A stretch of 62,459 bases of DNA, counting the filler, from an uncultured Methanosarcinales archaeon (lineage in GTDB: Archaea > Nanobdellota > Nanobdellia > Woesearchaeales > CAYMBN01): the NCBI GenBank assembly GCA_964388715.1. It is 7 parts of 7 records of this genome, joined end to end, with 100 filler letters (N's around TTAATTAATTAA, not from the genome) between each part and the next. Parts side by side here need not be neighbours in the genome. Positions count along the whole stretch, not along the records: positions 1 to 16,687 come from CAYMBN010000016.1; 6 more parts are not named here. One strand, written 5' to 3'. Positions 2,017 to 45,843 of the stretch are shown piece by piece (within the stretch, counting starts at the first letter, position 1; each line of letters opens with the position of its first letter). The translations under genes and the position numbers were made by a program. The notes under the pieces were generated by a model, which saw nothing but the letters and a program-made list of their open reading frames with translations, ran no database searches and was not told where the DNA came from.

Positions 2017-2038
2017 TTTTATTCAAATTCCTCCAAAT

Positions 2039-4972: not shown

Positions 4973-4991
4973 TTTAAAAAAAGAAAAAAAA

Positions 4992-6239: not shown

Positions 6240-6243
6240 GTTA

Positions 6244-6942: not shown

Positions 6943-7355
6943 TTTAATCTTGAAAGTTCGTTTGTTGTATTCTTTAATATTCTTTTAATGTCTTTTTCAT
7001 GTTTGCCTTGTTTTAATTTATTTAACAAATCAGCAAAAACACCAATACCACACTCAAAAACAGAATCAAAAGTCCTTACATTTGAAGCAAGATTATCAAT
7101 AAGTTCATCCTTTTTCTGGTTAAGCTCATTAAAATACTCTTTTCCTTTACTTGTAATAAAATAATTCTTCTTTCTACCATCTTTCTTCACTGTTAAACAT
7201 CCTTCTTTAAGTAATGAATCAAGCAAAGGATACATTGAACCAGGACTAGGTTTCCACCCACTTACTTCCTCAATCCTCTTCATTAACCCATACCCAGAAA
7301 GCGGTTTGTCTAGTAAAGACTTCAGAACAACCAATTTTAAGTGTTTTTGTGCCAT
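6939..7355 (-). CDS. PadR-family transcriptional regulator
   Basis: Motif PLSGYGLMKRIEE..WKPSPGSMYPLL..L..EG...RKKNYFITSKGK. First gene of the ABC operon, with an ATGA overlap to the next gene. Confidence 0.9.
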   Translation of the reverse strand: MAQKHLKLVVLKSLLDKPLSGYGLMKRIEEVSGWKPSPGSMYPLLDSLLKEGCLTVKKDGRKKNYFITSKGKEYFNELNQKKDELIDNLASNVRTFDSVFECGIGVFADLLNKLKQGKHEKDIKRILKNTTNELSRLK

Positions 7356-7363
7356 TATATTGC

Positions 7364-7433
7364 TATCGTTTTCGATATATTGGTGTTGATATATCTATAC
7401 TGTTATATTGTTTATGATATATCGTAAACGATA
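7364..7433 (-). promoter_or_regulatory. Two palindromic operators TATCG-N4-CGATA, probable PadR sites, downstream of a TATA box
   Basis: tatcgttttcgata at 7364-7377 and tatcgtaaacgata at 7420-7433. A minus-strand TATA (TTTATATATAAG) lies at about 7434-7446. Confidence 0.7.
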
Positions 7434-7561
7434 CTTATATATAAACTTTACGGTTTTAAAAAACAAATTATTTTACAAAACATTTAAAAATAAACCTTAA
7501 TTTAAGCCCATCAGAGGCGATAAACAACCTCATTCATTCTGAGGTATATGGAGGAAAAATA

Positions 7562-7900
7562 ATGTTAGAAAAACCAGAAATCTTAATCTTTGCAGAAGAA
7601 GATTTTGCTACTTCATATATTGAAGCAGTAGAAACAGATGAATACAAATGGGATCTTGAACCAAAATTGACAGATACTGTTAGAGCAGAAATCCAACAAA
7701 ATCCTGATAAGTACAAAGCAATAATTATTGATGAATTATATGAAGATATGGTCCCTGAATTAAAACAAATATATAGGGGTCCAATAATTGAAATCTGCTC
7801 AATATTTAAAAAACCAATTGAAGGAGTAACAATGGTCCTAGGAGCAGGATATGATTTTGGTAAACGACTAAAAATAACTTTAGAAAGATTAATCAACTAA
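7562..7900 (+). CDS. Hypothetical protein, possible degenerate CheY-like receiver domain
   Basis: 112 aa with GGAGG upstream. The segments ILIFAEED, AIIIDE and PIIEICS are spaced like receiver beta1, beta3 and beta4. Confidence 0.5.
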   Translation: MLEKPEILIFAEEDFATSYIEAVETDEYKWDLEPKLTDTVRAEIQQNPDKYKAIIIDELYEDMVPELKQIYRGPIIEICSIFKKPIEGVTMVLGAGYDFGKRLKITLERLIN

Positions 7901-7966
7901 TAATTCTTTTTTATCTATTTAAACTTATCACAACATTTAAAAATCACAACAATTTCTCCAAGTAAT

Positions 7967-8548
7967 ATGAGGCGTAGAAAGAAAAAATTCAACTATGGCA
8001 TTGTAATTTCTTTATTTATAGCATTTACAATGATATTCAGTGTCTTCATGTATGGTCTTGGTGATAAGGCTGTTGAAACAGAATTCACATACAATGGCCA
8101 AGAATTCATAAGAACAGAAGATTACTGGCTAACAAGAGTTGGTAATGGCAATTTAAAAACACATTATCATCCATTAGATGTTGAAAATATCAATGTTTCA
8201 GATGAAATCATAAACAAACTCAAAAACACACAAATGTTTTACACAACATTTGATCCAAACCAAGAAACACTATCTTTTATTGATTTAGTACGATTTGATA
8301 TCAAACCAATGTTAGCAATGAAAAACATCTTTTTAGTTGATGGTATACTTGAAAATACATCAAATTACAATTTACCAATCATAACATGCGAAAACACAAC
8401 AGCTTTTGTCCCAGTTATACTTTTCAAAGAAAGTAATCAAACAAAGATATACTTAGAAAACGACTGTATTATTGCAGAATCACCTTATGACTTAAATCAA
8501 GTAAGAATAAAAGACAGATTATTATTCGCAATCTTTAACATTATTTAA
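7967..8548 (+). CDS. Membrane-anchored hypothetical protein (DPANN-type), paralogue of the next gene
   Basis: N-terminal TM, then YNGQEF...ITC...NDCII...DRLLF, motifs shared with 8550-9233. Confidence 0.7.
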   Translation: MRRRKKKFNYGIVISLFIAFTMIFSVFMYGLGDKAVETEFTYNGQEFIRTEDYWLTRVGNGNLKTHYHPLDVENINVSDEIINKLKNTQMFYTTFDPNQETLSFIDLVRFDIKPMLAMKNIFLVDGILENTSNYNLPIITCENTTAFVPVILFKESNQTKIYLENDCIIAESPYDLNQVRIKDRLLFAIFNII

Positions 8549-8549
8549 A

Positions 8550-9233
8550 ATGGAACAGGAAAACAAAGAGGATTTAGCTAAACACGAAAAAAAGACAAAT
8601 AAAGTATTTACATATACAATATTTTTTCTTATCCTTGTATTCATTACACTTTTTGCAGTACGTTTCTGTTCAATGAAAAAAGATCAAGGCCCAGTTACAT
8701 TAGATGACATGGTCACAAAAACAGTAGAAGGTGAAATGACAGAAGATAACTTCTTGTACAATGGCTTTGCATTTGTAAAAGTAGATAATCTATGGTACAC
8801 TCAAATCCAAGTTGGAAAAAAACTATTTGATTTACCACTTCACTTTAATCCTGCAGAAAGCCTAGAAGTCCCAATACAAGGACAAGTTAATGATATATTC
8901 AAAGAAGCAAAAAAAGTATATGTTACATTTGATCCAACAGGTGAAAAATTAGCATTTGTTGCACTTGCAGTAGGAGAACTTGACCTTAGTTTAATTAACA
9001 TAATGCAACTTGAGGTTATTGCAGCCTGTGACAGAAATGAAACAGAGGCATGTGCTGAAAGACCAATAAAAACATGTGAAGATAGTGATGATGCAGTTAT
9101 TTACATTAAACAACAAGAACCTACTCAAGTTACATTAAATAACAACTGTATCATTATCCAAGGAGATGAACGAGAACTTACAAAAGCAACAGACAGATTA
9201 TTATACCATTGGTTAAGTGTAATCCCACCTTAA
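8550..9233 (+). CDS. Membrane-anchored hypothetical protein (DPANN-type), paralogue of the previous gene
   Basis: N-terminal TM, then YNGFAF...TFDP...IKTC...NNCIIIQG...DRLLY. 1-nt gap to the previous gene. Confidence 0.7.
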   Translation: MEQENKEDLAKHEKKTNKVFTYTIFFLILVFITLFAVRFCSMKKDQGPVTLDDMVTKTVEGEMTEDNFLYNGFAFVKVDNLWYTQIQVGKKLFDLPLHFNPAESLEVPIQGQVNDIFKEAKKVYVTFDPTGEKLAFVALAVGELDLSLINIMQLEVIAACDRNETEACAERPIKTCEDSDDAVIYIKQQEPTQVTLNNNCIIIQGDERELTKATDRLLYHWLSVIPP

Positions 9234-9234
9234 T

Positions 9235-9474
9235 TTATTCTTCTTCAAGCCTATCTCCACCAGTTTCTTCTCTAGCTTCTGTTTCAGGCTCTTCATGCTT
9301 AGGCTTATTTGTAAGATCAATATAACCTTCTCTTTTTTTATAGAAATAACCATATAGTGATATAACAAACCCAATTAGAATAAATATAATTCCAAACTTA
9401 CCTACTAAAGTAAATAAGGATAAAATTCCTAATAACAATAATACAATTCCCAAAATAACAAATTTTTTTTCCAT
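9235..9474 (-). CDS. Small two-TM membrane protein
   Basis: 79 aa with two hydrophobic helices and an acidic tail. Confidence 0.6.
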   Translation of the reverse strand: MEKKFVILGIVLLLLGILSLFTLVGKFGIIFILIGFVISLYGYFYKKREGYIDLTNKPKHEEPETEAREETGGDRLEEE

Positions 9475-9503
9475 TTTTAAAAAAGATAAAAAAAATAATT
9501 TAT

Positions 9504-10343
9504 TTAACTTCTTGAACTCTTTCCTAGGAGATACACAACTAACAATACTATAATTACAATTGCAATTATAATATATAATGTCATGTTTCCAGTTTTTAAG
9601 CCGTGTCCTAGATCAATTACTTCTTCAGCATTACAACTTGCTTTTCCTTCAGGACATGCTGGTTCTTCCATCTTAGCTACAAATGGAATTGTTTTGTCAA
9701 GTCTAATTTCTCTGTAATCTGAATCTGTTACTGCTTCAATATACTCAGCATTCATCTTTTGGTAAAGCTTTTTACCTGGAAGAGTTTTTGACACTGTTCT
9801 TGTAACAGGTTCTTGTACAGTTTCAGTAACATTCTTCAATACAGTTACCATTTGTGTTTCATTTTCTCCTGTCTCTTCGTTAAACACAATTTGTTCTTCT
9901 TCTACTTCTACTTCAGTTGTAACTTCTTTTTCTTCCATCTCAGTTACTTCTTCTTCAACTGCTTCACCAGCTTCTTCTTTAAATGGTATATACTTAATTG
10001 TACATCCACTTCTTTTGTCACCAACTGTATCAGCTTCCAATGTTAAACTCATTGACTTTTGACTTGGTCCAACATCAATAGTAAACTTTGGTCCTACATA
10101 TTGAGCAGCACCAGAACCAACACCTTCGGTTCCTGAAACAACTGCATCATCAGGACTTCTACACCATAAGAAACCAGTTATCTTATGATCCATGTCAGTA
10201 TTCACTACATCAAAAATTAACTCTGCTGATTTTTCTTTTGCAATACCAGGATTAGTCCTTTTTAACTGTATGCTTAGACCTGATGCCAAAACAGTACTAG
10301 CTAGAAGAAGACCCATCACGAGCATCACTAAAAATTTTTTCAT
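9504..10343 (-). CDS. Secreted, C-terminally anchored protein with an Ig-like domain and an E/V/T-rich insert
   Basis: Signal peptide MKKFLVMLVMGLLLASTVLA, upstream GGAGGT RBS, and a C-terminal TM helix. Confidence 0.75.
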   Translation of the reverse strand: MKKFLVMLVMGLLLASTVLASGLSIQLKRTNPGIAKEKSAELIFDVVNTDMDHKITGFLWCRSPDDAVVSGTEGVGSGAAQYVGPKFTIDVGPSQKSMSLTLEADTVGDKRSGCTIKYIPFKEEAGEAVEEEVTEMEEKEVTTEVEVEEEQIVFNEETGENETQMVTVLKNVTETVQEPVTRTVSKTLPGKKLYQKMNAEYIEAVTDSDYREIRLDKTIPFVAKMEEPACPEGKASCNAEEVIDLGHGLKTGNMTLYIIIAIVIIVLLVVYLLGKSSRS

Positions 10344-10384
10344 TTTATCAACCTCCTTTAGTTTTATTTACTTATTTTATATAT

Positions 10385-10440
10385 AAACTTTTGGGAAATT
10401 CCATTTTCCAAAAGGTTTAAAAATCTTTTAGATTTTTAAA
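10385..10440. terminator. Two tandem inverted repeats (possible terminator or operator)
   Basis: aaacttttgggaaat/attttccaaaaggttt (10385-10418, imperfect) and tttaaaaatct-ttt-agatttttaaa (10416-10440, perfect 11-bp arms), just after the stop of 10444-11040. Confidence 0.4.
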
Positions 10441-10443
10441 ATT

Positions 10444-11040
10444 TTACTCCCATTCAATTCCTTTAAATTGATATTTGGAAGCAATGAGTATTAAATCAAT
10501 TAACCACCACACACCAAAACCACCAAATGTGATTAATTTTAGTATTCCTAAACCAATATGACCTAATATAAACCTATCAACACCAAAACTACCAAAAAAG
10601 ATAGACATAACAAGCACTAAAACCCAATTAAGTTTTCTTGTTCCACTACTTTTCTTTGCCTGTTCTTTCTTCTTAACATACAAAACACCATCTTCAATCT
10701 TTGCATCACCTTTCTCCATTAGTTTTACAATTCTGACACTAGCACCAGCAGATGTTGCAATAACAAGAAAATATCCTGGAGCAGGATTACGGAAAATACC
10801 AGCCATTACAAATATAACAATAAATCCAACAACAAGATATTTTATACCTTTACCAATTAAACCCAAATAAAAAAAACCTCCACCAGGAAGAATATTTAAT
10901 ATTAAAGTAAGAAATACATTCTTTTTACTAGATTTAGTACTTACCCATTTATCGTCCTTTTTCTTGACAATCTTTGCACCGCAATCAGGACAAAATCCAT
11001 CATCATCATTTAACCTAGCACCACATTTTTGACAATTCAC
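10444..11040 (-). CDS. Zinc-ribbon + TM2-domain (NINE-type) membrane protein
   Basis: N-terminal CQKCG..FCPDCG zinc ribbon and C-terminal TM2 motif SIFFGSFGVDRFILGHIGLGILKLITFGGFGVWWLIDLI. Confidence 0.8.
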   Translation of the reverse strand: MNCQKCGARLNDDDGFCPDCGAKIVKKKDDKWVSTKSSKKNVFLTLILNILPGGGFFYLGLIGKGIKYLVVGFIVIFVMAGIFRNPAPGYFLVIATSAGASVRIVKLMEKGDAKIEDGVLYVKKKEQAKKSSGTRKLNWVLVLVMSIFFGSFGVDRFILGHIGLGILKLITFGGFGVWWLIDLILIASKYQFKGIEWE

Positions 11041-11612
11041 GTTATACCACCCTTAACTTCTGTATTATTTGGAACAACAATATCAACACTTTCATTTTCT
11101 ATCTCAGGTTGTACTTGTTCAACCTTTTCTTTTGTAATATACTGTTCAATATTCATATCATATCCACCTGTATAAATCAAAAGTAACATCAAAACAAGTC
11201 CAACAAAAATAGCAGGCATAAATGGATAAGTTTTTTTTCTTAATATTTTTGAATAAACTATTCTTAGAAGAAATTTATCAATTAATAATACAAAAACAAC
11301 AAAAAGAATTACATGAAACAGTGAAAAAAGAAACACAATTGGCATCATTGCAATTATATCACCATTAGCTAACTTAAAGCCAAGCAGATTAAAGTGAAGC
11401 AATATATACAAAACAACACCAAATCCTACCCTATAGTAAACACTAGGATCACCTTTGTAAAACAAATATCCAAACAAAACTAAAGCAATCAATCCCCAGA
11501 TATAAACAAAAGAAACAGAAGCACTCATCTTTAATAGATCATCAAGTGTAGACACAAGATAAGTTCCCAAGATCAATACCCCAATAATTAAAATTAAATT
11601 TGTACCAAACAT
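11037..11612 (-). CDS. Polytopic membrane protein
   Basis: 191 aa with about 5 hydrophobic segments, abutting both neighbours. Confidence 0.7.
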   Translation of the reverse strand: MFGTNLILIIGVLILGTYLVSTLDDLLKMSASVSFVYIWGLIALVLFGYLFYKGDPSVYYRVGFGVVLYILLHFNLLGFKLANGDIIAMMPIVFLFSLFHVILFVVFVLLIDKFLLRIVYSKILRKKTYPFMPAIFVGLVLMLLLIYTGGYDMNIEQYITKEKVEQVQPEIENESVDIVVPNNTEVKGGIT

Positions 11613-12632
11613 TTAAGCCCTTGCCCCACATTTAGTGCAAAATTTCTTACCTTTTTTTAATTCAGCACCACACTTTCTACAAAACTTAGGTCCTTTCTTT
11701 TTACTAACTTTTTCCTTTTCCTCAAGCTCTTCTAAAAAGTTAAGATACTCTTCTTTGAAAAGTCTATCATCAAAATCAAAACTACCAAGCTTCTTTTTTA
11801 TACGTCTTTTCATACCACCTAATGAAGGTGCACTTTTCTTTGAAGTAATATGATCATCAACAGCATTAATAGCTTTCCTTATTCTATTCCTTTCTCTTCT
11901 TTTAGTTGTATTTTCCTTTTCTTTACTTGCAGCAGCTTTATCACGTCTTGTTTCACGCTCATGTCTCAACTTTTTACCATATATGCTTCCAAGCACTAGT
12001 AAAACAATAATCACAATAATCACAAAAGTCCAGACCACATTAGCCCATTTAACATTCCGTTCATATCCTTGTCCAACAGTTGGGCATATATAAGATGAAT
12101 AAATATTATTATTAGGAATTCCACAATCACTACAACAGTTTTCACTTGTTTCACCTATTTCTGCACTACATTTTTCATCTCCGCAAGAAAGCAATTCAAT
12201 TGTTTTTTCTTCAACCTCAAGTGAATGTGCTGTACCTTGATAAACATATTCTATTTTCGCTGTTAAAGGAACTTCAACAGGATTATTACCTTCAAGATAA
12301 ACAACAATATCTTTTGAACCTTTCTCAGCAAAGTTAACAGTTGCAGTACATGAATAACCAGAACATGATTCAGCACCTTCACCACCTGTAAAAGAAACAC
12401 CAGAACCAACAGTCATAATAATCTGCATTTTATAAGCTTCATCAAGTTTATTAACAACACCAATTGTAACCTTTAACCTCTCACCTACCTCTGCAATCAG
12501 GTTATCAGTTGTAATATCAGCACTTAATGCTTCAAAACATTTTCCATTATAACAAAAATCACTTTCACACTGGAAATCACATGCACAAGGATCATTCAAG
12601 CTTGAACCTTTTATCTTAACACATTTATTCAT
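11613..12632 (-). CDS. C-terminal part of a split Cys-rich surface protein (Ig-like domain, TM, cytoplasmic zinc ribbon)
   Basis: The frame stays open upstream to 12842 with further Cys-rich sequence and has no signal peptide of its own. It ends FCRKCG..FCTKCG. Confidence 0.65.
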   Translation of the reverse strand: MNKCVKIKGSSLNDPCACDFQCESDFCYNGKCFEALSADITTDNLIAEVGERLKVTIGVVNKLDEAYKMQIIMTVGSGVSFTGGEGAESCSGYSCTATVNFAEKGSKDIVVYLEGNNPVEVPLTAKIEYVYQGTAHSLEVEEKTIELLSCGDEKCSAEIGETSENCCSDCGIPNNNIYSSYICPTVGQGYERNVKWANVVWTFVIIVIIVLLVLGSIYGKKLRHERETRRDKAAASKEKENTTKRRERNRIRKAINAVDDHITSKKSAPSLGGMKRRIKKKLGSFDFDDRLFKEEYLNFLEELEEKEKVSKKKGPKFCRKCGAELKKGKKFCTKCGARA

Positions 12633-12791
12633 ATTACCATAACATTCCTTATAACCTTCAGGACAACCACACTTTGTTTCATGACAAAATGTTGGACAAT
12701 CAACTTCCCTAGTTGTAGGAATCTTTGTTCCTTGACAAGTATGTAAATTAACATTACAATCTCCACCAAACTTCTCTCCTTTCTCTGTTAA

Positions 12792-12873
12792 TATTTTATT
12801 GAGTTTTACTTCATGTTTCCCAATATTCTCTTTCTTTTGTGATTAAAGGGCCTAAGAAATAGGTTATTTTATT
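12792..12873. repeat. 9-bp direct repeat TATTTTATT flanking a 64-bp segment that breaks the reading frame
   Basis: Copies at 12792-12800 and 12865-12873. Removing 73 bp fuses the two ORFs in frame. Confidence 0.5.
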
Positions 12874-13581
12874 ATTTTTACAAGTACCTTCTCCAAACCA
12901 ATTTATTGTTTCTTTACAATCTTGATCACTTACACATTCAACACATTTACTTTTAAAACATTTCAAACCAGAACAATCATTATCAGAAACACATTCAACA
13001 CACTGATGACTTGATTTATCACATACTTTACCACTTCCACAACCAGCATCTTCACAACAATTCCATTGACTTTCTCCTGCATCAATCCTTCCATTACCAC
13101 ACAAATCCCGACACTCTCCATTATTACATTCTTGTTTATATTCACACTGCCTTCCACAAGAACCACAATTATATTTGTCAGTATTCATATCAACTGTTCT
13201 ACCATTGCAACAACTATCTGCTTTACACTTTTCATTCCAATCACAAAATCCATCACCGCAGTGATAAGAATCAGCCCTACATACGTTATGTACACAATGA
13301 CCTGATTCACAATCATTACTCCATGTACAAGCACCGCCATTACAACCTTTACAATCTGCTCCACAACTATTACAATCTTCTCCAGCATCACAATAATTAT
13401 CTCCACAATAAGGATTAGAAGCCCTACATATATTATGCACACAATGTCCACTTGTACATCCTGCATTACCTGAACACCAATAACCATCTGGTTTAGCTAA
13501 AGATCGAGTTAAAGTAGCTGAAACAGTGCCAACACAAGTAAGAATAAGCATCAAAACAATGAGATAAGCTATTTTTTTCAT
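12811..13581 (-). CDS. N-terminal part of a split Cys-rich surface protein (signal peptide + Cys-rich repeats)
   Basis: Signal peptide and duplicated C..GHCVHN.CRA...CGD..CD repeats. It ends in an out-of-character tail just before the downstream in-register frame. Confidence 0.65.
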   Translation of the reverse strand: MKKIAYLIVLMLILTCVGTVSATLTRSLAKPDGYWCSGNAGCTSGHCVHNICRASNPYCGDNYCDAGEDCNSCGADCKGCNGGACTWSNDCESGHCVHNVCRADSYHCGDGFCDWNEKCKADSCCNGRTVDMNTDKYNCGSCGRQCEYKQECNNGECRDLCGNGRIDAGESQWNCCEDAGCGSGKVCDKSSHQCVECVSDNDCSGLKCFKSKCVECVSDQDCKETINWFGEGTCKNNKITYFLGPLITKEREYWET

Positions 13582-13810
13582 AGTATCCTCTTTTTAAATA
13601 TTTAAATTATTGTTATTTATAAATGTTTTGACCAAAAATATGTGCATAGTGGCTGTGCCATTTCTTTGTAAAAAATAAGGATTTGGATCATAAGACAATA
13701 GTGTCAAAAACCTTAATTCAAAAAAGCAGGTTTTTGTATTTTTTACAGGCATGCCACTATTCACATTAACCGAAAAAGATATAAATATGTGGCTTATTTC
13801 TAATCCTATT

Positions 13811-13996
13811 ATGGCAATGAAAAAATGCAATTTTTGCGAAAACAAAGTACCAGAAAATGGCCAATGTAACAAATGTGGTTTTATAGATGGTTTAAACAGA
13901 CCACCAAGTGATAACGAATTTAAACAAGCAAGAGATGTTAATACAAAACATAATTATGATCAATTTGAAAACATTGACATGCTATTATTAGATTAA
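13811..13996 (+). CDS. Small zinc-finger protein
   Basis: Motif CNFC...CNKCG. Start chosen at ATG 13811, in frame with the 13751 ORF. Confidence 0.55.
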   Translation: MAMKKCNFCENKVPENGQCNKCGFIDGLNRPPSDNEFKQARDVNTKHNYDQFENIDMLLLD

Positions 13997-14349
13997 ATTT
14001 CTTTCATACCATCTTTAGTTAAAGCTATCAATCTAATACCTAATCCAAGCTTTAACAATGCAGACAACATTGCCATATGTTCTTTACCAGAACCAGAAAC
14101 AAAATTAATAGCAACATCAGTATCTCTTACTTTTCCTTGTAACTGACTTTTAATACTTTCAACCAGTTCTTCTATTCCCATTCTATCATTAATAACAATC
14201 AATTCAATTGGTTTTTCAGAACTAAACTTTTCCCTACCAAACTCATTAGTCACCAAAAAGATCTTTTCCCAATCATGTTCATTAATAAGTCTAGCAACAT
14301 GTCCCCAAGTACCTTTCCCAGTTGACAAACAAGCTATTAACGATGTCAT
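13993..14349 (-). CDS. Stand-alone CARF-like (Rossmann-fold) protein
   Basis: 118 aa. LIACLSTG, IFLVT and VAINFVSGSGKE resemble the CARF beta1, beta2 and N-x-T/S-G-G-x-K motifs. Confidence 0.55.
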   Translation of the reverse strand: MTSLIACLSTGKGTWGHVARLINEHDWEKIFLVTNEFGREKFSSEKPIELIVINDRMGIEELVESIKSQLQGKVRDTDVAINFVSGSGKEHMAMLSALLKLGLGIRLIALTKDGMKEI

Positions 14350-14382
14350 AATAAATAAGAAAACTAACTTTTATTTAAAGTT

Positions 14383-16077
14383 TTATTTTTTAGGTAGAAC
14401 CATTCCAGAACTTTCTCCTGTCATGATTACTTTCTTGTTATTTATGAATATTGAATATACTTTATGACTATGTCCTGTTTCATCACTTTCTCTTAAGTAA
14501 TATCTAAATAAGACTAATTTATAACTATCACCTATCTTAGGAGCTTCAGCATTAGGATCTATTTTAACTGTTTGTTTTTTATAAACCAAATTCTTTTCTT
14601 TTAATTGGTCTTCACCATAAACTTGTTTAAAATATTCAACAAGATTTCCTGCAATTGCACTTTCCATTACTTTAAAGTCAACAACATCAGGATCTCTCCC
14701 TATAGATTCATTATAATCTCTAACATCCTCTTCAGTAAGAACTCTTTCAACAATCATAACATCATCAGTATAGAATCTACTGTCTCCTCTTGCCTCAACA
14801 TCCTTATTTTTGTCAATATGTAACAAAAGATCAGCTAATTCTGTTTTATTTTCATCATATTTAGGAAGACCATACCTCATCATCTCTTTCCACACAGCTT
14901 TAATTTTTTTAGAGTATTCCCCTTTTTGAAGATCCATCAATAAATTACTAATCTTTATCAATGAAAACTCATTTTCTTTTGAATCAGTCTTTTCTTTTAG
15001 CACCATTAAATCACTAACACACTCAGGAACAGAACCAGAAAATTTTATTTCACCTTCATCTACTTTTCCATTTTTTACAAAGGAATACTTAAGCTTGATT
15101 ACTTCTTCCTCCTTTAACAATACAAACTTAACATTAGGATCCTTTAATACATAACTAGCAAAAATAGTCCTTGAGGCTACAACATCTTTATTTTTCTGGA
15201 AAGCATCATGATTAAGTAAAGTTTCCAATATTTTATAGTAATTACTTTTAAGATTGGTTGCTCTTTCAGGAATATAACCCCATAATTCATTTAATATTTG
15301 ATCATATACTTTTTTAAAATTAAAAAAGCTCCCTATAGTATAAATTTGTCCCTCTGCTAATGGAACAAATACTGTTTTATTATCTGTTCCTTGTTTTCTT
15401 TCAAATCCAATTTTAAAATTATATCTTAATCTACAATTTTTTTGTAAAGTTGGTTTGTCATCAATTTTAGTTATTACTTCAACTCCTGGTTCAACTACAT
15501 TATCACCAATATCAACAATTAGTGTACCATGACCAGCATCTGTTACTTTTTCTCCCCCTTGATAAGTAAGCCTTCCCCTACCAACAATTGACATATCTCT
15601 TAAACTATAAACAAGGTCAACAACTGTTTCGTCTTCTGGAATTTCTCTCCATATGTCAAGGGAAAGACTCATATTACCTGGCATGACTGCTGCTTCTATT
15701 ACCATATCATCAAGTTCATTTTTTCCTTCTAAGAATAATCCAAATGCTTCACTATACATACTTTGAGTAGCATTAGATATTGTATTTGCAGTATCACCAA
15801 GTGGCATTGTAAAATCATCATCAATTAAATCAAGAGAATTATAACACACTGGTTTTACAATAGGTTTTATTCCTTGTTCCTGAGCCTTTGTTAAAGAATA
15901 AAAGTTATTCCCAATAAATCTAAACATTAATTTAGGATTTCTTTTAGCCAGATCAAGAACATCCTTATATGCATAGATAGCTGCTTCAGAATCAGCATGT
16001 ATTGGATTTTTATCTCCAACTGCCTTAACAAACTTAAGGATCTTCTCTAATGTTACTATTGTTCTATATTCTGCCAT
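14383..16077 (-). CDS. MaoC-like (hot-dog fold) dehydratase/hydratase-domain protein
   Basis: N-terminal VTLEKILKFVKAVGDKNPIHAD is the MaoC D-x-N-P-I-H motif. A second degenerate hot-dog-like unit (LTEEDVRDYNESIG...KIGDSYKL) lies near the C-terminus. Confidence 0.6.
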   Translation of the reverse strand: MAEYRTIVTLEKILKFVKAVGDKNPIHADSEAAIYAYKDVLDLAKRNPKLMFRFIGNNFYSLTKAQEQGIKPIVKPVCYNSLDLIDDDFTMPLGDTANTISNATQSMYSEAFGLFLEGKNELDDMVIEAAVMPGNMSLSLDIWREIPEDETVVDLVYSLRDMSIVGRGRLTYQGGEKVTDAGHGTLIVDIGDNVVEPGVEVITKIDDKPTLQKNCRLRYNFKIGFERKQGTDNKTVFVPLAEGQIYTIGSFFNFKKVYDQILNELWGYIPERATNLKSNYYKILETLLNHDAFQKNKDVVASRTIFASYVLKDPNVKFVLLKEEEVIKLKYSFVKNGKVDEGEIKFSGSVPECVSDLMVLKEKTDSKENEFSLIKISNLLMDLQKGEYSKKIKAVWKEMMRYGLPKYDENKTELADLLLHIDKNKDVEARGDSRFYTDDVMIVERVLTEEDVRDYNESIGRDPDVVDFKVMESAIAGNLVEYFKQVYGEDQLKEKNLVYKKQTVKIDPNAEAPKIGDSYKLVLFRYYLRESDETGHSHKVYSIFINNKKVIMTGESSGMVLPKK

Positions 16078-16198
16078 ATTAAGCGAAATTCGTGTTTACT
16101 TTTTAAATATTTCTATATTTTTGCCTTATTTCACAAATTAACAAAATTTTTAAAACAGCCCATATTGACACACTAAAAAGAGGTTCTAAAGGCTTAAA

Positions 16199-16687
16199 AT
16201 GCAAAGATTACAAACTTACCAAGAAGATGAACAAAAACTAATAAATTTTGTTAAAGAATTGTCAAATTATAAAGAGCAATTGACTATAAAAGATCCTGTT
16301 TCTGTTCAAGGAAAAGCTGTCTTTAATAGTACTCCTGTTACTGTTACATTTAAACCTGCCACTATCAATCATGGCATTGCATTTTACAAGGATGGATTAA
16401 GAGTAGATGCAAGTATTGACAATGTGGTAAGCACAGACATGTACATCACCCTAGGTTCAAAAACACCATTAAACATAGAATATCTTCTAAGTAATGTTAG
16501 TAATAATTTATTCATGAAAGCTATCGATTTTTCCCTCAAAATTTCACACAAATTATTAGGATTTTACGATCCACATCAGATCAATATTGTTGAACATATT
16601 TTAGCAACTATCTATGGATTAGGAATTGATAATTTGGAAATACACCTAAACAATAATCAATTACCCATATTTAATGATGGTTCTTTA
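16199..16687 (+). CDS. lpxC: UDP-3-O-acyl-N-acetylglucosamine deacetylase (LpxC) homologue, 3'-truncated by the contig end
   Basis: QLTIKDPVSVQG..VTVTFKPA..NHGIAF...IVEHILATIYGLGIDNLEIHL...LPIFNDGS aligns by eye to the LpxC N-terminal half (QRTL..G.GLH..V.L.L.PA..N.G; TVEHL.AAL.GLGIDN...IPIMDGS). Confidence 0.8.
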
Positions 16688-16787
16688 NNNNNNNNNNNNN
16701 NNNNNNNNNNNNNNNNNNNNNNNNNNNNNNNTTAATTAATTAANNNNNNNNNNNNNNNNNNNNNNNNNNNNNNNNNNNNNNNNNNNN
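16688..16787. other. Artificial contig spacer (N44-TTAATTAATTAA-N44)
   Basis: 100-nt linker carrying stop codons in all six frames. Confidence 0.98.
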
Positions 16788-19700
16788 GTTCCACATTGTT
16801 GAGTTAGTTCTTCATCAACTTGATTATCACAATCATTATCAAGTCCATCGCAAACTTCTTCACTTGGATTAATATCTCCATTACATTCTTGCCATATTCC
16901 TTGTTCACAAACTTTAATACCAAATTTACATTGTCCAATGTTAGATATTCCACATTGTTGAGTTAGTTCTTCATCAGTTAAAGTGTCACAATCATTATCA
17001 ATTCCATCGCAAACTTCTTCACTTGGGTTGATATCACCATTACATTCTTGCCATACACCTTGTTCACAAGTTTGGACACCAAATTGACATTGTCCAATTT
17101 TTGAAGTTCCACATTGTTGTATTAATTCTTCATCAATTGAGGAATCACAATCATTGTCTATTCCGTCGCATATCTCTTTACTTGGATCTGTGTTTCCAGA
17201 ACATTGAGACCATTCGCCAAGATTACAGGTTTGAGTACCAAATTTACATTGTCCAATGTTTGAAGTTCCACATTGTTGTGTTAGTTCTTCATCAATTTGT
17301 CCATCACAATCATCATCAACATTATTGCATGTTTCATCTTTTGGAGTTATCTCACCAATGCATTCTTGCCATTTTCCATTTTCACATGTTTGTATGCCTG
17401 TTTGACAAAGACCTTCACTAGATCCACAAACTTGTTTTTGCCCATTTAAACATTCACATTCAATATTATTATCAACTGAGTCATCACAATTATCATCAAT
17501 TCCATTACATGTTTCAATTGAAGGTATAATTTCATCTATACAACCAGACCATTCTCCGTTTTCACATGTTTGAGTACCTTTTTGACAAGAACCTATATTA
17601 GAACCGCATTGTTGAGTAATGTCTTCATCAACAGTACCATCACAATCATTATCAGTTCCATCGCAAACCTCGGTTGAAGCATCTATGTTACCTAAGCATT
17701 CTGACCATATTCCAGCAGCGCAGAATTGTGTTCCAAATTGACATTGTCCTGTGTCAGATGATCCACATTGTTGAATTAATTCTTCGTCAACTTGTTGATC
17801 ACAATCATTATCAAGATTGTCACAAATTTCAGTGTTAGGTTCAACATTACCTGAACATTCTAACCATTGTCCTGCTTCACATGTTTGTAGTCCTAATTTA
17901 CATTCTCCAACATTAGATGTTCCACATTGTTGTGTTAGTGCATCATCAATTGCACCGTCACAATCATTATCAAGGTTGTCACAGATTTCAACACTTGGTT
18001 CAATATCACCAATACATTCTCCCCAATTTCCATTATTGCATGTTTCTGTTCCTAGTTTACATTGACCAACATCACTTACTCCACATGTTTGTGTTAAATC
18101 TTCATCAATTATATTGTCACAATCATTATCAAATCCATCACAAACTTCTGTGCTAGGTTCAATATTACCAGAGCAACCTGACCATTCACCACTGTTACAT
18201 GTTTTAGTGCCAAATTGGCATTGTCCAGTGTCAGATGATCCACATTGTTGTATTAAATCTTCATCAACTTGTTCATCACAATCATTATCAATATTGTCAC
18301 AGATTTCTGTAGAAGCTTCAATTTTACCAATACATTCTCCCCAATTTCCATTACTACATGTTTGTGTACCTAGTTTACATTGTCCAATATTGCTTGTTCC
18401 ACATTGTTGAGTTAAATCTTCATCAATTAAACCATCACAATCATCGTCAATACCATTACATGTTTCATCAATTGGTTTTATTTCACCTATACACTCTTGC
18501 CACAATCCGTTTTCACATGTTTGTGTTCCTGTTTGGCAAGCTCCTGCATCAGATCCACAAGTTTGTTGTTCATTATTTAAACATTCACAATAAATATCCT
18601 CATCAACTTGCTCATTACAATTGTCATCAAGTCCATTACATATTTCTGTTGTTGGGGTTATTTCATTAACACATAATGACCATGCATTATTTTCACATGT
18701 TTGGATTCCTTTTTGGCATATACCAATATTAGAACCGCATTCTTGAGTAATTTCTTCGTCAGTTAAGGTGTCACAATCATTATCAAGTCCATCACAGATT
18801 TCATTATCTGGTTCAATGTTTCCTATGCAATTAGACCATTCACCTTGATTACAAGTTTGAGTACCAAATTGACATTCTCCAGTGTCAGATGAACCACATT
18901 GTTGAATTAATTCTTCGTCAACTTGTTGATCACAATCATTATCAAGATTATCACAGGTTTCAACAATAGGTTCAATGTTACCTATACAACCTGACCATTC
19001 ACCTTGGTTACAGGTTTGAGTACCAAATTGACATTGTCCTGTATTGGATGATCCACATTGTTGAGTAAGATCTTCATCAACTTGTTCATCACAGTCATTA
19101 TCAATATTATCGCAAGTTTCATCAATTGGAGTTATTTCACCAACACATTCTTGCCATAATCCATTTTCACATGTTTGTATACCTGTTTGACATGCTCCAA
19201 TATCAGATCCACAAGCTTGTTGTTGACCATCTAGACATTCACAATATATGTTGTTGTCTACTTTGTCATCACAATCATCGTCAATACCATTACATGTTTC
19301 TGTTGTTGGGATTATTTCATTTACACATAAAGACCAGGCATTATTTGCGCATGTTTGGATTCCTTTTTGGCAAGCACCAATGTTTGATCCACATTCTTGT
19401 GTAATTTCATCATCAATTATATTGTTACAATCATTATCAAGTCCGTCACAGATTTCAACAGATGCTTCTATTTTACCAATGCATTCTCCCCATTCTGCAT
19501 CAACACATGTTTGAGTGCCAAATTGACATTGACCTATGTCGCTTGATCCACATTTTTGAATGAGTTCTTCGTCAACTTGTCCATTGCAATCATTATCAAG
19601 TCCATCACAAAGTTCAACAGAAGCATCAAATTTACCAATACAATCACCCCAATTTCCAAGACTACATGTTTGAGTACCAAATTTGCATTCTCCAATATCA

Positions 19701-20700
19701 GTTGTTCCACATTGTTGTGTTAAATCTTCATCAACTTGATTATCACAATCATTATCAATATTATCACAAACTTCTTTACTGGATGAGATGTTGCCAAAAC
19801 ATTCTGACCATTCTCCACTTACACATGTTTGAGTGCCAAACTCACATTGACCAATGTTAGTTGTTCCACATTGTTGTGTTAATCCTTCATCAATTTGTCC
19901 ATTGCAATCATTATCAAGTCCATCACAAATTTCATCAGTAGGTTCAATGTTACCTATACAACCAGACCATTCACCATTGTTACAGGTTTTTTGTCCATAC
20001 TTGCATTCTCCAGTGTTGCTTGTACCACATTGTTCTGTTAGATTATCATCAATCTCACCATCACAATCATCATCAAGATTATTACATGTTTCATTAATAG
20101 GATTAATATTTGGAATTTCAATTTCCCAGAAACCGTTTATACATTGTTTTGTACCTAGTTTACATTCACCAATACTGGATATACCATATTCTTGTGTTAA
20201 TCCTTCATCAATCTCTGTGTTACAGTTATCATCAAGATTATTACATGTTTCATCTCTTGATTTAATTTCACCTTCGCATTCAGTCCAATTGCCTTTAATA
20301 CATGATTTTATACCAAATGTACAAATTCCAATATCAGATTCACCACAAATTTCTACTAATTCTTCATCAATAGCACCATCACAATCATTATCTAATCCAT
20401 CACAGATTTCTTGGGTAGGGTTAGTGGCTCCTATGCAAACAGACCATTCACCTTCACTACAAGTCATTGTGCCTAGTTCACATTCACCAATGTTTGAGCC
20501 ACATGGTTTAATCAGGCTTTCATCTGTTTCACCATCACAATCATTATCTAAATTATCGCATGAGGTTTCATTAGACTCGTAGTCATTTCCATATTGATTT
20601 GTATCACAACCAAGCCAAATGTTGTCAGTACAAATTTGTTTACTTTCTTCACAAACGCCCTGAGTTAATGGGCAATCTTTTTGTTCATTATCATTACATT
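16788..20700 (-). repeat. Tandem array of >=24 ~53-aa (~159-bp) coding repeats E.CDG.DNDCD..VDE.L.Q.CG.S..G.C..G.Q.C..G.W..C.G
   Basis: 24 DNDC/DDDC/DDNC units counted by eye, resembling the putative metal-binding (Cu-binding MopE-like) motif. The contig breaks inside near-identical terminal copies. Confidence 0.9.
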
Positions 20701-23700
20701 CTGCTGTAATACTTACATTTATTTTGTTAGTGAATAGTACTGAGTATAAATGTTTGAATATTGTGAAAAATTCCCATTCAGTGTTAACTTCTCCTGTTGT
20801 GTTAACAACCCAGTTAATATCACAGTCTTCACCGGGTTTCATATTTTTTAGGCAATCTTCATTACTATAATTAATTGGATTACTTGATGTAAAGAAAGGT
20901 TTTGCAGTTGGTTGTGTTTGAATAATCCCCTTTTTAAATATTTCAATTTGATTTTCTTCCCAGACTGTTTCATTTTCTTGTGCTTCTGGGTGACATGAAA
21001 GGTTATATTCATATATTCCTCCTTTTTCAAACTCAATATTATATTCATAGAGATCTTTTATAGGAAGATAAATCATTTGATGTTCTTGGTTATCTATTAT
21101 TAGAGTGCATTCTCCTGTTATTGTTTCATTATTATAAATATCATAATATTCAGCATAAAATGCGATTGTTTCATTGGCGTACTTTAGTAATGGTTCGTTG
21201 TATGTTATAAGATTAGCATTACCTAATTGTTTAACACCTGTATGTTTTAAATTGTTTAATACATAAATTGGTAAATTACCATCAATGCATCTACCATTTT
21301 CTAATTTTTGTAAAATAGTATCACATTCTTTTCTACATTCTATAATATCAAGACCATCATTTCTTGTGATGTTTGTGTATGATTCTTTTGAAAGTAAACA
21401 ATCCTTAATTTTATATTCATCATTTGCACTACAATCATTACTAATTTCATCAGGATCTTGCACTTCAGCATCCTTAATACAGAATTCATTTGAAACTATA
21501 TTCTCTAGTCTTAATGTTTTTGTACCTTTACACTTTTTGTCTGTTTGTGTTTGGTCTTCACATTTGAAGATTTGTGTTCTGTCAAAACCTTTTTCAGAGA
21601 ATTTGTGTATAGATAAACTAGGTTTTGCGTTTTCATCAATTCCTTTTAATTCAACAATAGGTTTTTTCTTTTTTATCTTGCCTAATGTTTTTGCTTTTTT
21701 ACTAAATATCTGTAATTTGCTTTTAGTTCTTTTTACGTTCTTGTTATCTTCTTTATATCTGATAACTTGTTTACACTGTGCTTCTTCACCTTCTGATCCA
21801 TCAGGGTCATGACAAATTGCATTTTCACAAGCAATACTTATTACAAATTCCCAATCAGTGCAACCACCTTCGCACTTATCAGATCTTGAGTAGACATATC
21901 TGAGTGATTCATTTGAACCACATCTATAATCTATCTCTTTTCTACATTCTTTTTTACATTCAGGTGTATCTTGTTTTTTTATTTTGAATTCTTTACTTAA
22001 TGTGATTAGTTTATTTTTTGAGTTAAAGAATTTTAACTTAACAAGGTATTGACCTCCTTTGACAGTTTTACCACATTTTTTCTGGTTCCAGGTATATGTT
22101 AAATCTTTGTTGGTTTCTATTTTTTCAGGAGCTATACCAAATTTGCAACCATAATCAGGGAAAGCGAAATTGACAACATGTTTTTTGTTATTTTTATTTA
22201 TGTCATATATTATTGTTTCAATAATTTCAATATTTTCTCTTCCGCTATTTATTATATTTATTTTAACTTCTTCACCATGTTCAAATAATTCTTTGATTTG
22301 TAAATATGGTTGAGGTACTTCTGGTTTGATGTGGAATTCTTCTGATTCTATATTGTGTGGGGATATGATAATCTTATATTTTCCAATACCACTTACTAAG
22401 TTTACTTCTTTATCATCTACGCACAATGTTTCGTTTTGATCCCAGGAGATAATCTTTGTTTCATTAGGTTTAAGTGTTAATGGTGCAGGATCACATGTTA
22501 CTCCGCAAGGACATAGCCTTCTTTTAACTTTTTTCCAATCATTATTTTCATACTTATAAATATCATAATCATAGGTTGTTTTTGAGTTGTGGTTACTTTT
22601 AATTATGATTGGAACATTTTCTCCAATTTCATAGTTTTGTTTAGTGGTTGTAATGTTTATTTTTGGTATAACTTGTTCTTTTATTGTAAATTCTTTTCTT
22701 ATTGTATTAAATATTAAACCGTTTTTGTAATAATATATTGGAATGATTAATTCATATTTGCCTGGTGCAAGTTTTTTATCAGTTCCTCTTACATAATTAT
22801 TAGATTCATCTTTTTCACATTGGTATTGGATAGCATTAATAGAAAATTCAAAACGGTTCAGTTTGCTTAAAATATTGTTTTGGTATAATAACCATTTTTC
22901 AAGTAAATCTTTATTGTTGAGTATTTCAGTGATATTGTGTGTTTGGTCGTCATATTTGAAAGAAGAGATACATTCACTATTATCAGTAATAGCATATGGG
23001 TGTTCTTTGTTTTTTAAGATCCATTTAAATTTGCCTTCTGTTGTATAATACTCAACATTAAAATTATTTTTGAGTTTAATTGGGATATTTTGGTTGTAAT
23101 TAAAATTGTTTAGTAATTCTATGTCAGGAATAATTTCTGTGTCAGATAAAATGTTAATATCAATCTTTTCCTCAACAATTTCAATGTTTTTGTAATCAAG
23201 TTTTTTGAAACAATTAGTTCCTTTTTTACATTTATAATATGTTACAGTAAGTTGATATTCTCCTGGCTCAACAGTCGTAGAAATGCTTTCTTGGTATTCT
23301 TTTCCTGCACATGTTTTTGTTATTGTTTCGCAAGTTTCTTGTCTCCAATAACCTTGGATATTGCTTCCTATTTCCCTAAATTTATCTTCTATGTATGATT
23401 TACTTAGGTATGTTTTTATTTCTCCTTCAACACATTTTTTGATAACTCCTTTACAACGAATATCAACTGTTTTTAGTTCATCTGATTCATGTTTTTTAAT
23501 ACTCCACCAATCTCCTTTTATTGCAATGGTTTCATCTGCTGGTTTTTTCAATGTTATTGCTATATTTTTATCTTTTAATATTTTTGTTCTAACTGTAACT
23601 GCGCTTTTCTTAACATCAAATGCTTCTGTTAGTAATTCTAATTTGTCATCTTTATTGTATACTCCAACAACTAATTTATAACTGCCTTCTGATAATTGTT

Positions 23701-25885
23701 CTTGGATTTTTCCTTTGTATGGGACTAATACTATTGTTCCTTTAATGTTTTGATTAATTATTTTTTGACTTTTGCTAATAGGAGAATCTTTACAATCACA
23801 ATCTTCAATGCTTGTTGATACTAACTTATCATCTTTATATAATAACCAAAGATATTTTCCATCTGGTGAATATATTAATTCATTCATTGGATTGATTAGT
23901 TGGAATTCAACTTTCTGGTTTGTGTTGAACTCTTCTTTGATATCAAGGTATTTATTTTCAGAGTAAATGTTAAATTCTCTCTCTAGTTTGATTTGTTGTC
24001 CGTTTTTGTTAAAGCAAATAGTTTCAATTTTGTATAATCCTGCTTTTACTTGTCGTGGGTTAGAAAAGTCTAGATAAGTTATTGCGCCACAAACCTTTTC
24101 TTCAACAGAATAAATCCTTTGATCCCAATAATCTTTTGCATTTAAATTAGTGAGTTTGTAAAGTTCTTGATATAATATCTCTTTGTATGATTCACAATCT
24201 TCTTCACAAGTACAAATATTTTCTTTATCACTACAAATTCCATCTCCGCATGTTTCATCCCAACCATTTACACATATTCCTTTTGAACCATCTTTTGGTG
24301 TAATACAATGTTTACCATCAAAGATAGCATTAGGCATTAGTCCAGCGTTATTGTTACAACATTTAATTGCACCTGATAAGTAAGAAGTGTATACTGTTTC
24401 TCCATCTTGTGCGCATTTTTCACAGTCTTGTTTACATGTTTCAGGTGTTTCTCCTTTATCACAATCACCATCACCACATACTACTGGTTTTATGACTGTT
24501 AATTCTGAGTTTTCTTTAATGATTCTTATTGGTACACTTTGATTAACCTTGTTTACAAAAATGTTAGATATTTTTAAAGGACTTTTTTTACCTGGTTTTC
24601 CAATTCTTTTAAATTTAATATTTGCAATGGTTCCTTTGTTATTAATATCATTAGGTGAAATTAGTGCGATTTTAATAGGATTGCTATTGAGGTTGTATTG
24701 CATAATTGAATTGGTTGTTAGATCTCCTTTTGTAACCTCTTTTGGTGTAAGAATATTAGCGTCGTATAAAATATCAATATCAATGTTTTCAATATCTTCT
24801 GCTTGTGATATTGTGATTGGTAGTATGAATTCATCTTCAGTTGTTGCCCAGTCTGAGGTTTGATTTTTTAATGAAACTTTTGTGTAAGCTGCTTGTTCAA
24901 GACATTTGTAAACATTTATTTCTTGATCTTGTCTAACTAATTTTTTTGCAAGAGGTTGGCAACAATTTCCTGTTGAGAATTCTTCATCTTGTTGTTTGCA
25001 TGTTTCTTGTTGTGGTTCTTCTTCTTCTTCTTCTTCTTCTTCTTCTTCTTCTTCCTCATGTTGTTCATCTTCTGCTAAGCATACATAAGCTTGATCTTGT
25101 TCATCAAGGAGTTCTTTTGTTAATCCTTGGCAGCATTCTTGATCTCCAAAAAAGAGTTCATCTTCTCTAATACAGGATTCTTCTTGTTCTTCTTCTGCAA
25201 CACATAAATAAATAGGGCCATATTCATCTTCATCAATTTGTTCTTTTACTAAATCTCCGCAACATTCTTCATCTTCATAAACAATATCATCTTCTTCATA
25301 ACATGTTGGTTCTTCTTCCTCTTCTTCCTCAGTACAATCTTCATAACAATTGCATTCATCTTCTTGACCAGCACATGTTCCATCACCACAGTTTACATCC
25401 CAGTTGTTAATGCAAGTTCCTAATGAGCCATCTATTGGATCTAAACATATTCCACTGTCAGTGTCTAAATATGCATTTGGTTTGATTCCAGCATTTTCAC
25501 TGCAACATTTTGTTACACCTAGGCTTGAATCTGAATATACTTTTTCACCTTCTTGTGCACAGGAAAGTACTTGTGTTTCAAAACATTTGTATGGAATTGG
25601 TGTAATTCCTCTAGCAGCAACAATTTGATCATAACCTTCACAACATTCACCTTCTGTAAAAGTACCATCTGCATCTGTTTTACATGTTTCATCTTTAACA
25701 CATCTGTGATATGGATTATGTCCTTTACTAGCCATCATTGCTGTATATCCATCACAGCATTCACCTTCTTGGAAACTTTCATCTGCATCTGTTTTACATT
25801 CTTCGGTTTCACCACTAATTGCAGCAGAACATAAAACTAGTAAAATCAACAGTACAGGTATTAGTATACTCTTTTTTTGGTTCAT
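16788..25885 (-). CDS. Giant (>3030 aa) secreted Cys-rich surface protein: small Cys repeats, cohesin-like domain, Ig-like domains, >=24 MopE-like metal-binding repeats; 3'-truncated
   Basis: The start at 25885 (MNQKKSILIPVLLILLVLCSAAISG, signal peptide) overlaps the upstream stop as ATGA. The frame is open to the contig end. Confidence 0.85.
25016..25054 (-). repeat. (GAA)13 microsatellite encoding a poly-Glu linker
   Basis: (TTC)13 on the + strand. With one adjacent GAG codon it gives E14 in the giant protein. Confidence 0.9.
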
Positions 25886-29300: not shown

Positions 29301-29354
29301 ATACTTTTAAAAAGAAAACAACATATATAAATTTTACTACTTTTTAAGGGTTAT

Positions 29355-35959: not shown

Positions 35960-35960
35960 T

Positions 35961-45841: not shown

Positions 45842-45843
45842 AT

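Follow-up and report, generated by a model that had tools for sequence, protein, structure and literature searches.

Bacterial LpxC (EC 3.5.1.108; PF03331, TIGR00325) is a much-studied antibiotic target, in which we take Glu78 to be the general base and His265 to be the acid, with Thr191 and Asp246 assisting. Archaea are not known to make lipid A, and no counter-example was found in the literature. Nor did we find a description of an archaeal or DPANN LpxC in a literature search that had most subscription journals outside its scope, where an earlier mention may exist. Passages of the published work on the bacterial enzyme give H79, H238 and D242 as its zinc ligands, M195, I198, F212 and V217 as lining its acyl passage, and K143, K239, K262 and H265 as binding the UDP phosphate (PMC10254716); elsewhere, excerpts describe bacterial lpxC as often adjoining or being fused to fabZ (PMC5007114), and use LpxC as a marker of the diderm lipopolysaccharide outer membrane (PMC3603455). 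The fused forms, found in Elusimicrobia, Omnitrophota-PVC-FCB and other groups, provided the next-best long matches (30-34% identity) to the protein fragment described below. Their motifs are canonical and, unlike in the full-length relatives of that fragment, a FabZ hot-dog domain is present at their C terminus.

The gene that we describe lies in a stretch of DNA of 62,459 nucleotides (hereafter, the window) and is represented there by its 5′ part. It shares with bacterial LpxC the domain family and the Glu78-His79 pair, to which its full-length relatives P0001 and P0009 add the remainder of the catalytic set, and P0001, when modelled, the two-domain fold. In contrast to bacterial LpxC, it appears to reside in an archaeon, it carries a predicted helical-hairpin insertion and an N-terminal helical extension, the residue corresponding to His19 is Phe (Leu in P0009), and no lpx or fabZ gene was found among the neighbouring open reading frames (ORFs) scanned; in the relatives, K143, the GGS motif and residues of the acyl passage appear changed as well. 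The reading that we prefer, and that we consider reasonably probable, is that the gene is native to the chromosome of a Woesearchaeota/Nanobdellota-like DPANN archaeon and belongs to a rare insertion-bearing clade; its product would be a zinc deacetylase of the LpxC fold, probably active, whose substrate differs from the canonical one.

An LpxC-family reading frame at a contig terminus

The window is made up of seven contigs (positions 1-16687, 16788-28915, 29016-37816, 37917-46128, 46229-51906, 52007-57664 and 57765-62459) separated by identical N44-TTAATTAATTAA-N44 spacers, and the GC content of all seven falls between 30.5 and 32.9%. The ORF of interest opens with an ATG and proceeds free of stop codons to the terminus of contig 1 [Table 1]. 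A preliminary description, made from the sequence alone, had recognized in it an LpxC N-terminal domain with the catalytic Glu, the first zinc-ligand His and the GLGIDN and PI-DGS motifs. All of these were found, and the Pfam LpxC profile (PF03331) matched the fragment well above its gathering cut-off (E 1.5e-19; 71 bits vs 27). The Pfam match was split into two stretches, which signals an insertion in the window protein. In addition, the fragment matched 28 distinct solved LpxC sequences in a phmmer search (E<=0.01), and alignment with E. coli K-12 LpxC placed E132 and H133 on E78 and H79, two columns that are invariant in all 272 of the 272 aligned family sequences. Against the NCBIfam lpxC equivalog (TIGR00325, EC 3.5.1.108), the fragment scored 52.8 bits for a cut-off of 187.25, a value lowered by the protein being only half present.

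Table 1 Features of the LpxC-family gene, its surroundings and its closest relative. Positions refer to the window, except for the last line
Feature	Position	Strand	Remarks
Divergent neighbour, 564 aa, orphan	14383..16077	-	context only; functional link hypothetical
AT-rich intergenic region, 121 bp	16078..16198	.	common to the gene and its divergent neighbour; presumed promoters
LpxC-family gene, 5′ part, 163 codons	16199..16687	+	open frame, truncated at the contig 1 terminus
N-terminal extension, residues 1-23, charged	16199..16267	+	predicted helix; no signal-peptide character
AVF (residues 40-42) replacing canonical GLH	16316..16324	+	F42 corresponds to E. coli H19 by alignment
Clade-specific insertion, ~residues 88-124	16460..16570	+	approximate borders; between Insert-I sheet and Glu-His helix
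IVEHILA, residues 130-136	16586..16606	+	contains E132 (catalytic Glu) and H133 (first zinc-ligand His)
GLGIDN, residues 140-145	16616..16633	+	G88, I89, D90 and N91 are invariant alignment columns
PIFNDGS, residues 156-162 (canonical P-I-x-DGS)	16664..16684	+	P102 column invariant; contig ends one codon on
P0001 LpxC-like gene	L001 10001-11005	+	stand-alone; alanyl-tRNA synthetase and gyrase B flank on opposite strand

Other particulars of the preliminary description held to varying degrees. The replacement of GLH by AVF was borne out, and the corresponding residue is F34 in P0001 and L19 in P0009. Loss of His19 on its own is a weak and non-diagnostic criterion, however, since 34 of 272 aligned family members are also without this His. 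An N-terminal extension of about 25 residues had been noted; there are 26 residues ahead of the conserved Gln, compared to a family mode of 3, and a shorter extension (18 residues before the same Gln) is present in P0001. An insertion preceding the VEH motif is indeed present, but it is slightly smaller than the 35-40 residues first estimated: the interval exceeds the family mode of 41 by some 32 residues. The HKxxD motif was correctly expected to lie past the end of the contig. A 175-residue protein, P0006, which consists of the window protein plus 12 residues, stops short of this motif as well; its additional residues align with the following LpxC helix. The statement that activity could not be judged therefrom holds for the window copy; it does not extend to P0001 and P0009, full-length relatives in which H238, K239, D242 and H265 are kept. 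With 163 residues visible, the window copy could be broken or shortened beyond the end of the contig, which would speak against our preferred reading.

Host assignment of the gene

Given the position of the gene at the extreme end of a contig, we considered whether this end could stem from bacterial contamination or from a chimeric assembly, an eventuality that the preliminary description had singled out as one that would undo its proposal, naming coverage and tetranucleotide continuity along contig 1 as a check. Composition was continuous to the end of the contig. The GC content remained between 28 and 34% throughout the last 3 kb of contig 1, and the LpxC fragment itself has a GC content of 29.4% and a GC3 of 20.9%, compared to a mean of 18.3 +/- 4.6 for 95 equal-length gene chunks of the window. 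The likelihood of its synonymous codons falls at the 13th percentile of the 95 gene chunks, and the tetranucleotide profile of the last 1 kb correlates with that of the remainder of contig 1 at r = 0.92, where other 1-kb pieces yield values of 0.74-0.94.

The preliminary description had further placed the LpxC homologue on a DPANN-looking contig. In agreement with this, a radical-SAM protein encoded at the opposite end of contig 1 (103-1074) had nearest protein-atlas clusters that were 100%, 100% and 97% archaeal, with Nanobdellota and Candidatus Woesearchaeota as their commonest taxa (scores of 0.98-0.99 in a language-model look-alike search). An archaeal XerA equivalog was found on contig 5 (231.9 vs a cut-off of 220). 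tRNA and Rfam scans revealed no tRNA, rRNA or other Rfam family in the window, and no ribosomal protein gene was found in it. The window thus appears to be archaeal on the strength of the look-alike search, of one XerA equivalog located on another contig, and of the relative P0001. 

Beyond the location of the gene, a contaminant or chimera would be in keeping with an LpxC family that is overwhelmingly bacterial, with named profile matches that, among the matches listed, are bacterial except for P0001, and with an adjoining neighbour that is an orphan devoid of taxonomic signal. Yet the fragment does not depart from the range of contig 1 and of the bin in GC, GC3, codon choice or tetranucleotides, the by far closest relative is archaeal and has the rare insertion in common with the window protein, and this relative sits amid archaeal housekeeping genes on a separate Woesearchaeota contig of 85.9 kb. 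We therefore regard a foreign contig end as extremely improbable.

Relatives carrying the insertion

A full HMMER scan of the window protein against 1.84 billion cluster representatives returned 471 proteins at E<=0.001, of which P0006 and P0001 alone reached E<=1e-10. P0001 is a protein of 334 residues to which NCBI has given the name UDP-3-O-acyl-N-acetylglucosamine deacetylase [Candidatus Woesearchaeota archaeon]. By BLASTP, residues 25-162 of the window protein aligned with residues 17-159 of P0001 (35% identity over 144 columns, E 2e-22), and the alignment continued right through the insertion. The architecture is the same in P0009, a metagenomic protein of 320 residues from a 1.8-kb contig. 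A profile built from P0001 and P0009 scored 670 and 628 bits on these two proteins and 173 bits on the next best (8000 scored candidates, 5.8 billion proteins), with 4514 of the 8000 candidates at E<=1e-10. Among the matches listed (best 120), all named proteins below this drop in score were bacterial. LpxC-FabZ fused forms occurred among the matches of this profile as they did among those of the window fragment. A scan of GTDB species representatives with two peptide patterns yielded 137 matches, of which one, the P0001 locus, was confirmed; the gene was thus not recovered from any other archaeal genome by these patterns.

To place the insertion in the context of the family, 271 family proteins were aligned with E. 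coli LpxC and the fragment from the window (n=273). In 270 of the 273 sequences, 33-48 residues separate the positions equivalent to G36 and E78 of E. coli LpxC (mode, 41). The three exceptions are the window protein, P0001 and P0009, in which the distance is 73, 78 and 80 residues, respectively, and which thus have in common an insertion of 25-47 residues. Pairwise identity among the three is 30-41%. Judged from this alignment, the insertion is a clean shared character of the three proteins. Together with the loss of His19, the helical hairpin that it is predicted to form just ahead of the catalytic Glu-His helix would mark a tiny clade made up of the window protein, one protein of a Woesearchaeota metagenome-assembled genome (P0001) and one metagenomic protein (P0009).

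Quick maximum-likelihood inference from a 60-row alignment stripped of the insertion columns grouped P0001 and P0009 with P0007, P0043 and P0191 at an SH-aLRT of 97, apart from the 55 other rows. Like the insertion-bearing proteins, P0007, P0043 and P0191 are without His19 (F, F and Y, respectively) and without the GGS motif, and keep E78, H79, H238, K239, D242 and H265. In contrast to them, they have no hairpin insertion, have lost K262, and show P-P, T-P or S-P in place of T191-F192. When left free in the quick tree, the window fragment, which fills 35% of the tree-alignment columns, fell among canonical LpxC sequences and away from P0001 and P0009, on an end branch of 1.7. This placement was dropped in view of the few columns filled and because constraining the three insertion-bearing rows to group with one another gave a tree with a log-likelihood 8.77 above that of the free quick tree (p-AU 0.676). 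The sequence data thus somewhat favour, and do not reject, a clade of the window protein, P0001 and P0009. The preliminary description had proposed that the gene was laterally acquired, as it may have been; a bacterial origin is plausible, since the LpxC family is overwhelmingly bacterial.

The 21 kb surrounding the P0001 gene, taken from contig JAHWHG010000008.1 (85.9 kb) of the Woesearchaeota MAG FT2_348, encode FtsZ, DnaJ, DnaK, a pseudouridine synthase and other proteins in addition to the two flanking genes listed in Table 1. Located 3 kb from the P0001 gene is the gene for uS15, whose S13/S15 N-terminal domain is typical of archaea and eukaryotes. As in the window, the LpxC-like gene stands alone; unlike the window gene, that of P0001 is full length and has alanyl-tRNA synthetase and gyrase B as neighbours. 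Matches in the P0001 locus were limited to 2 of the 42 window ORFs, one being the LpxC fragment and the other encoding an Ig-repeat surface protein, and the GC content of this locus is 37% as opposed to 31% for the window, indicating that the two organisms are distant. This distance argues for a long residence of the gene in this group rather than for a recent one-off transfer.

Structure models were obtained with AlphaFold2. The model of P0001 (124-row alignment; pLDDT 93.1, pTM 0.93) displays the complete two-domain beta-alpha-alpha-beta fold of LpxC and superimposed on solved LpxC structures in Foldseek with target-normalised TM scores of 0.81-0.92 (rmsd ~2-3 A). Here, the insertion takes the form of a helical hairpin (helices 84-95 and 102-117, pLDDT 79-91) that lies between the Insert-I sheet, with its three short strands, and the strand and helix bearing E129 and H130. 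The model of the window fragment (pLDDT 79.3) comprises domain I only and matched domain I of solved LpxC with an E value of 5e-7 and query-normalised TM scores of 0.52-0.55. Its insertion was likewise modelled as two helices (93-98 and 104-119), with a pLDDT of 50-69, and its N-terminal extension as a helix spanning residues 2-22 (pLDDT 86-89).

The low pLDDT of the insertion in the window copy, the loss of His19 and the long branch (1.7) are features that one might expect if a transferred bacterial gene had lost its catalytic function or were decaying, at least in the window organism, as is the fact that the N-terminal half alone is visible and that the P0006 version ends at 175 residues. 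Yet the 163 codons of the window gene are uninterrupted by a stop or frameshift, E132, H133, GLGIDN and P..DGS are retained, and the alignment with LpxC carries on into its next helix over the 12 further residues of P0006. Moreover, clade members that are only 30-41% identical have nevertheless kept the motifs, with all catalytic residues present in the two full-length ones, a pattern that fits long-term purifying selection. Decay of the gene is thus unlikely in our estimation.

Active-site residues, pathway partners and candidate substrates

Our preferred reading of a native and probably active deacetylase draws on the C-terminal half of P0001 and P0009. Alignment with E. coli LpxC indicated that both proteins keep H238, K239 and D242 (the HKxxD motif), H265, K262 and F192. 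T191 is conservatively replaced by Ser in both. At D246, P0009 retains the Asp whereas P0001 has Ala, as does a canonical-looking Firestonebacteria LpxC. Other positions appear to have changed: K143 is Glu in both proteins, I198 is Arg or Lys, the GGS motif is I/V-N, and F212 and V217 are altered, the passage residues being mapped from an alignment that is of low identity and interrupted by indels in this region. P0001 scored 187.1 bits against PF03331. On the lpxC equivalog (cut-off 187.25), P0001 and P0009 both fell below the threshold, at 152.2 and 180.1 respectively, and P0191, P0043 and P0007 scored 115.3, 79.4 and 74.3, compared to 351.9 for the canonical bacterial LpxC P0008. Because the relatives stay under the equivalog cut-off, no pathway context was found and the host appears to be archaeal, the window gene, while a member of the Pfam LpxC family, is not filed as LpxC sensu stricto.

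We then looked for partners of a lipid A pathway. No lpxA, lpxD, lpxB, fabZ or acyltransferase gene was found among the 41 ORFs scanned in the window (62 kb), and no lpx, fabZ or acyltransferase gene among the 21 ORFs scanned around P0001 (21 kb), the scans covering ORFs of at least 80-90 residues, a range above that of short genes such as acpP. The 564-residue product of the divergent neighbour had no homologue among 7999 scored candidates in a word-index search, no usable match in the protein atlas and, at best, a chance-level match in the PDB (phmmer, E 0.47). Residues 4-35 of this protein matched Pfam families of MaoC and FAS1 hot-dog dehydratases with sub-threshold scores (17.3 vs 22 and 14.4 vs 27). 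We rejected its identification as a hot-dog dehydratase and keep the match as a lead only, since it lies below the cut-offs, spans some 30 residues, and an hhalign comparison with a FabZ-domain profile derived from 38 fused proteins returned a probability of 0.1-0.4%.

These data bear on whether the gene product could be a true LpxC acting on UDP-3-O-(3-hydroxyacyl)-GlcNAc, be it in the synthesis of an archaeal lipid A-like glycolipid or on precursors from a bacterial partner. The relatives retain the full catalytic set along with F192, K239 and K262; the P0001 model has the Insert-II beta-alpha-beta region; P0009 comes near the equivalog cut-off; and the name given to P0001 by the NCBI pipeline is that of the canonical enzyme. 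The faint hot-dog signal next to the window gene would also be in keeping with a true LpxC, in view of the frequent association of bacterial lpxC with fabZ mentioned in the excerpts cited above. On the other hand, both relatives remain under the equivalog cut-off and appear altered at K143, I198, the GGS motif, F212 and V217, the partner genes lpxA, lpxD, lpxB and fabZ are missing from the 41 + 21 ORFs scanned, the signal in the neighbour is short, below cut-off and assigned a probability of at most 0.4% by the FabZ profile, and lipid A synthesis is not known in archaea. On balance, we hold a canonical LpxC activity to be unlikely.

The preservation of the catalytic core at 30-41% identity, the apparent changes in the pocket, the addition of a new surface element by the active-site flap and a housekeeping context without partners together point to a deacetylase acting on another substrate. 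If complete, the window gene would encode an active amidase that depends on a metal and follows the mechanism of LpxC: a water molecule bound to zinc would be activated by the Glu as general base, with His265 as the acid. The preliminary description had suggested as substrate a UDP-GlcNAc derivative, acylated or otherwise, or metabolites of a host or prey. The enzyme may act in the cytoplasm on a UDP- or lipid-linked N-acetyl-hexosamine other than the canonical lipid A precursor; we favour a non-canonical substrate because residues of the acyl passage and one ligand of the UDP phosphate appear to have changed and because no lipid A gene was found nearby. The most likely candidate would be such a hexosamine employed in making an archaeal surface glycan or glycolipid.

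A bolder variant is that Woesearchaeota-type DPANN archaea keep a remodelled LpxC under selection, possibly together with the orphan bearing the MaoC-like motif, in order to process 3-hydroxyacyl sugar nucleotides, either modifying the lipid A precursors of bacterial partners or building a lipid A-like glycolipid of their own. We consider this very unlikely; were the archaea to build such a glycolipid, it would represent the first lipid A-type chemistry in Archaea.

If our preferred reading is correct, an LpxC-family branch in archaea devoid of an outer membrane would illustrate that evolution can put the LpxC fold to use in a different deacetylation. The surface chemistry and host dependence of DPANN archaea are poorly understood, and identification of the substrate could expose a new sugar or glycolipid modification in these organisms. 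The clade as known comprises three members, one of which, the window copy, is half a gene. For metagenome annotation, an LpxC domain alone should not be taken to mean lipid A synthesis; P0001 already stands in the database under the name of the canonical LpxC enzyme.

The longer copy of the LpxC-like protein and a second divergent group

The protein library holds a longer copy of the LpxC-like protein encoded at window positions 16199-16687: P0006 (175 aa) consists of the window protein plus 12 further residues, and the original contig therefore extends at least 36 nt past the end of contig 1 as presented in the window. The seven separate contigs of the window are joined by synthetic N44-TTAATTAATTAA-N44 spacers, located at 16688-16787 and at five other junctions. 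ORFs spanning these spacers, such as 16199-16735, are artefacts of contig joining. Library proteins P0007, P0043 and P0191 form a second divergent LpxC-like group, which is devoid of the helical-hairpin insertion found in the window protein. The zinc and catalytic residues are kept in all three, proline-containing pairs stand in place of T191-F192 (E. coli LpxC numbering) and K262 is lost; their scores against the NCBIfam lpxC equivalog model range from 74 to 115 bits (cut-off, 187.25).

The divergently transcribed neighbor

No homologue of the 564-aa product of the gene next to the LpxC-like gene [Table] was detected by word-index search among 7999 scored candidates. Its first ~35 residues, which include GDKNPIHAD, yielded sub-threshold matches to two hot-dog dehydratase families, FAS1_DH_region (E 0.0055) and MaoC_dehydratas (E 0.029), and the FabZ profile gave no match to the protein. 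In bacteria, LpxC often occurs as a fusion with the hot-dog dehydratase FabZ or next to it (PMC5007114), which makes this hot-dog signal intriguing.

Other genes of the window

The giant truncated protein consists largely of cysteine-rich repeats with a match to the MopE-type putative metal-binding motif (205 bits) and probably serves as a surface protein or in adhesion. The Ig-repeat families Big_9, Cadherin_4, He_PIG and PKD occur in large proteins of both the window and L001, the 21-kb Woesearchaeota locus around the gene for P0001, a full-length LpxC-like relative. Besides LpxC, the window's Ig-repeat ORF was the only one to match this locus (two of 42 ORFs). Contigs 3, 4 and 6 (29016-45338 and 52007-56755) carry co-directional runs of large ORFs (207-1063 aa) with no Pfam match at E<=1e-4. 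On contig 1, the gene assigned to COG1361 in the preliminary description proved to encode the CARDB protein of the permease operon. The archaeal XerA of contig 5 scored above its equivalog cut-off and adjoins genes for a radical-SAM DNA repair protein and MutL. MutL is unusual in archaea; that of contig 5 is of the bacterial type (541 bits against a cut-off of 180) and may be a further gene derived from bacteria.

Table. Positions of the features in the window and in the Woesearchaeota locus
Feature	Position	Strand	Remarks
Operon: PadR regulator, ABC ATPase, CARDB-domain protein, two MacB/FtsX-type permeases	2538-7355	-	
564-aa protein	14383-16077	-	Divergent relative to LpxC-like gene
Giant protein, at least 3074 aa	16790-26011	-	Truncated; cysteine-rich repeats, cohesin domain
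Pfam-less co-directional ORFs (example runs)	34097-37816; 37918-45338; 52007-56755		
XerA recombinase (archaeal), radical-SAM DNA repair protein, MutL	46909-51469		Contig 5
Large Ig-repeat protein	57766-62457	-	Ig-repeat families common to window and L001
Large Ig-repeat protein	L001 17797-18627	-	Woesearchaeota locus
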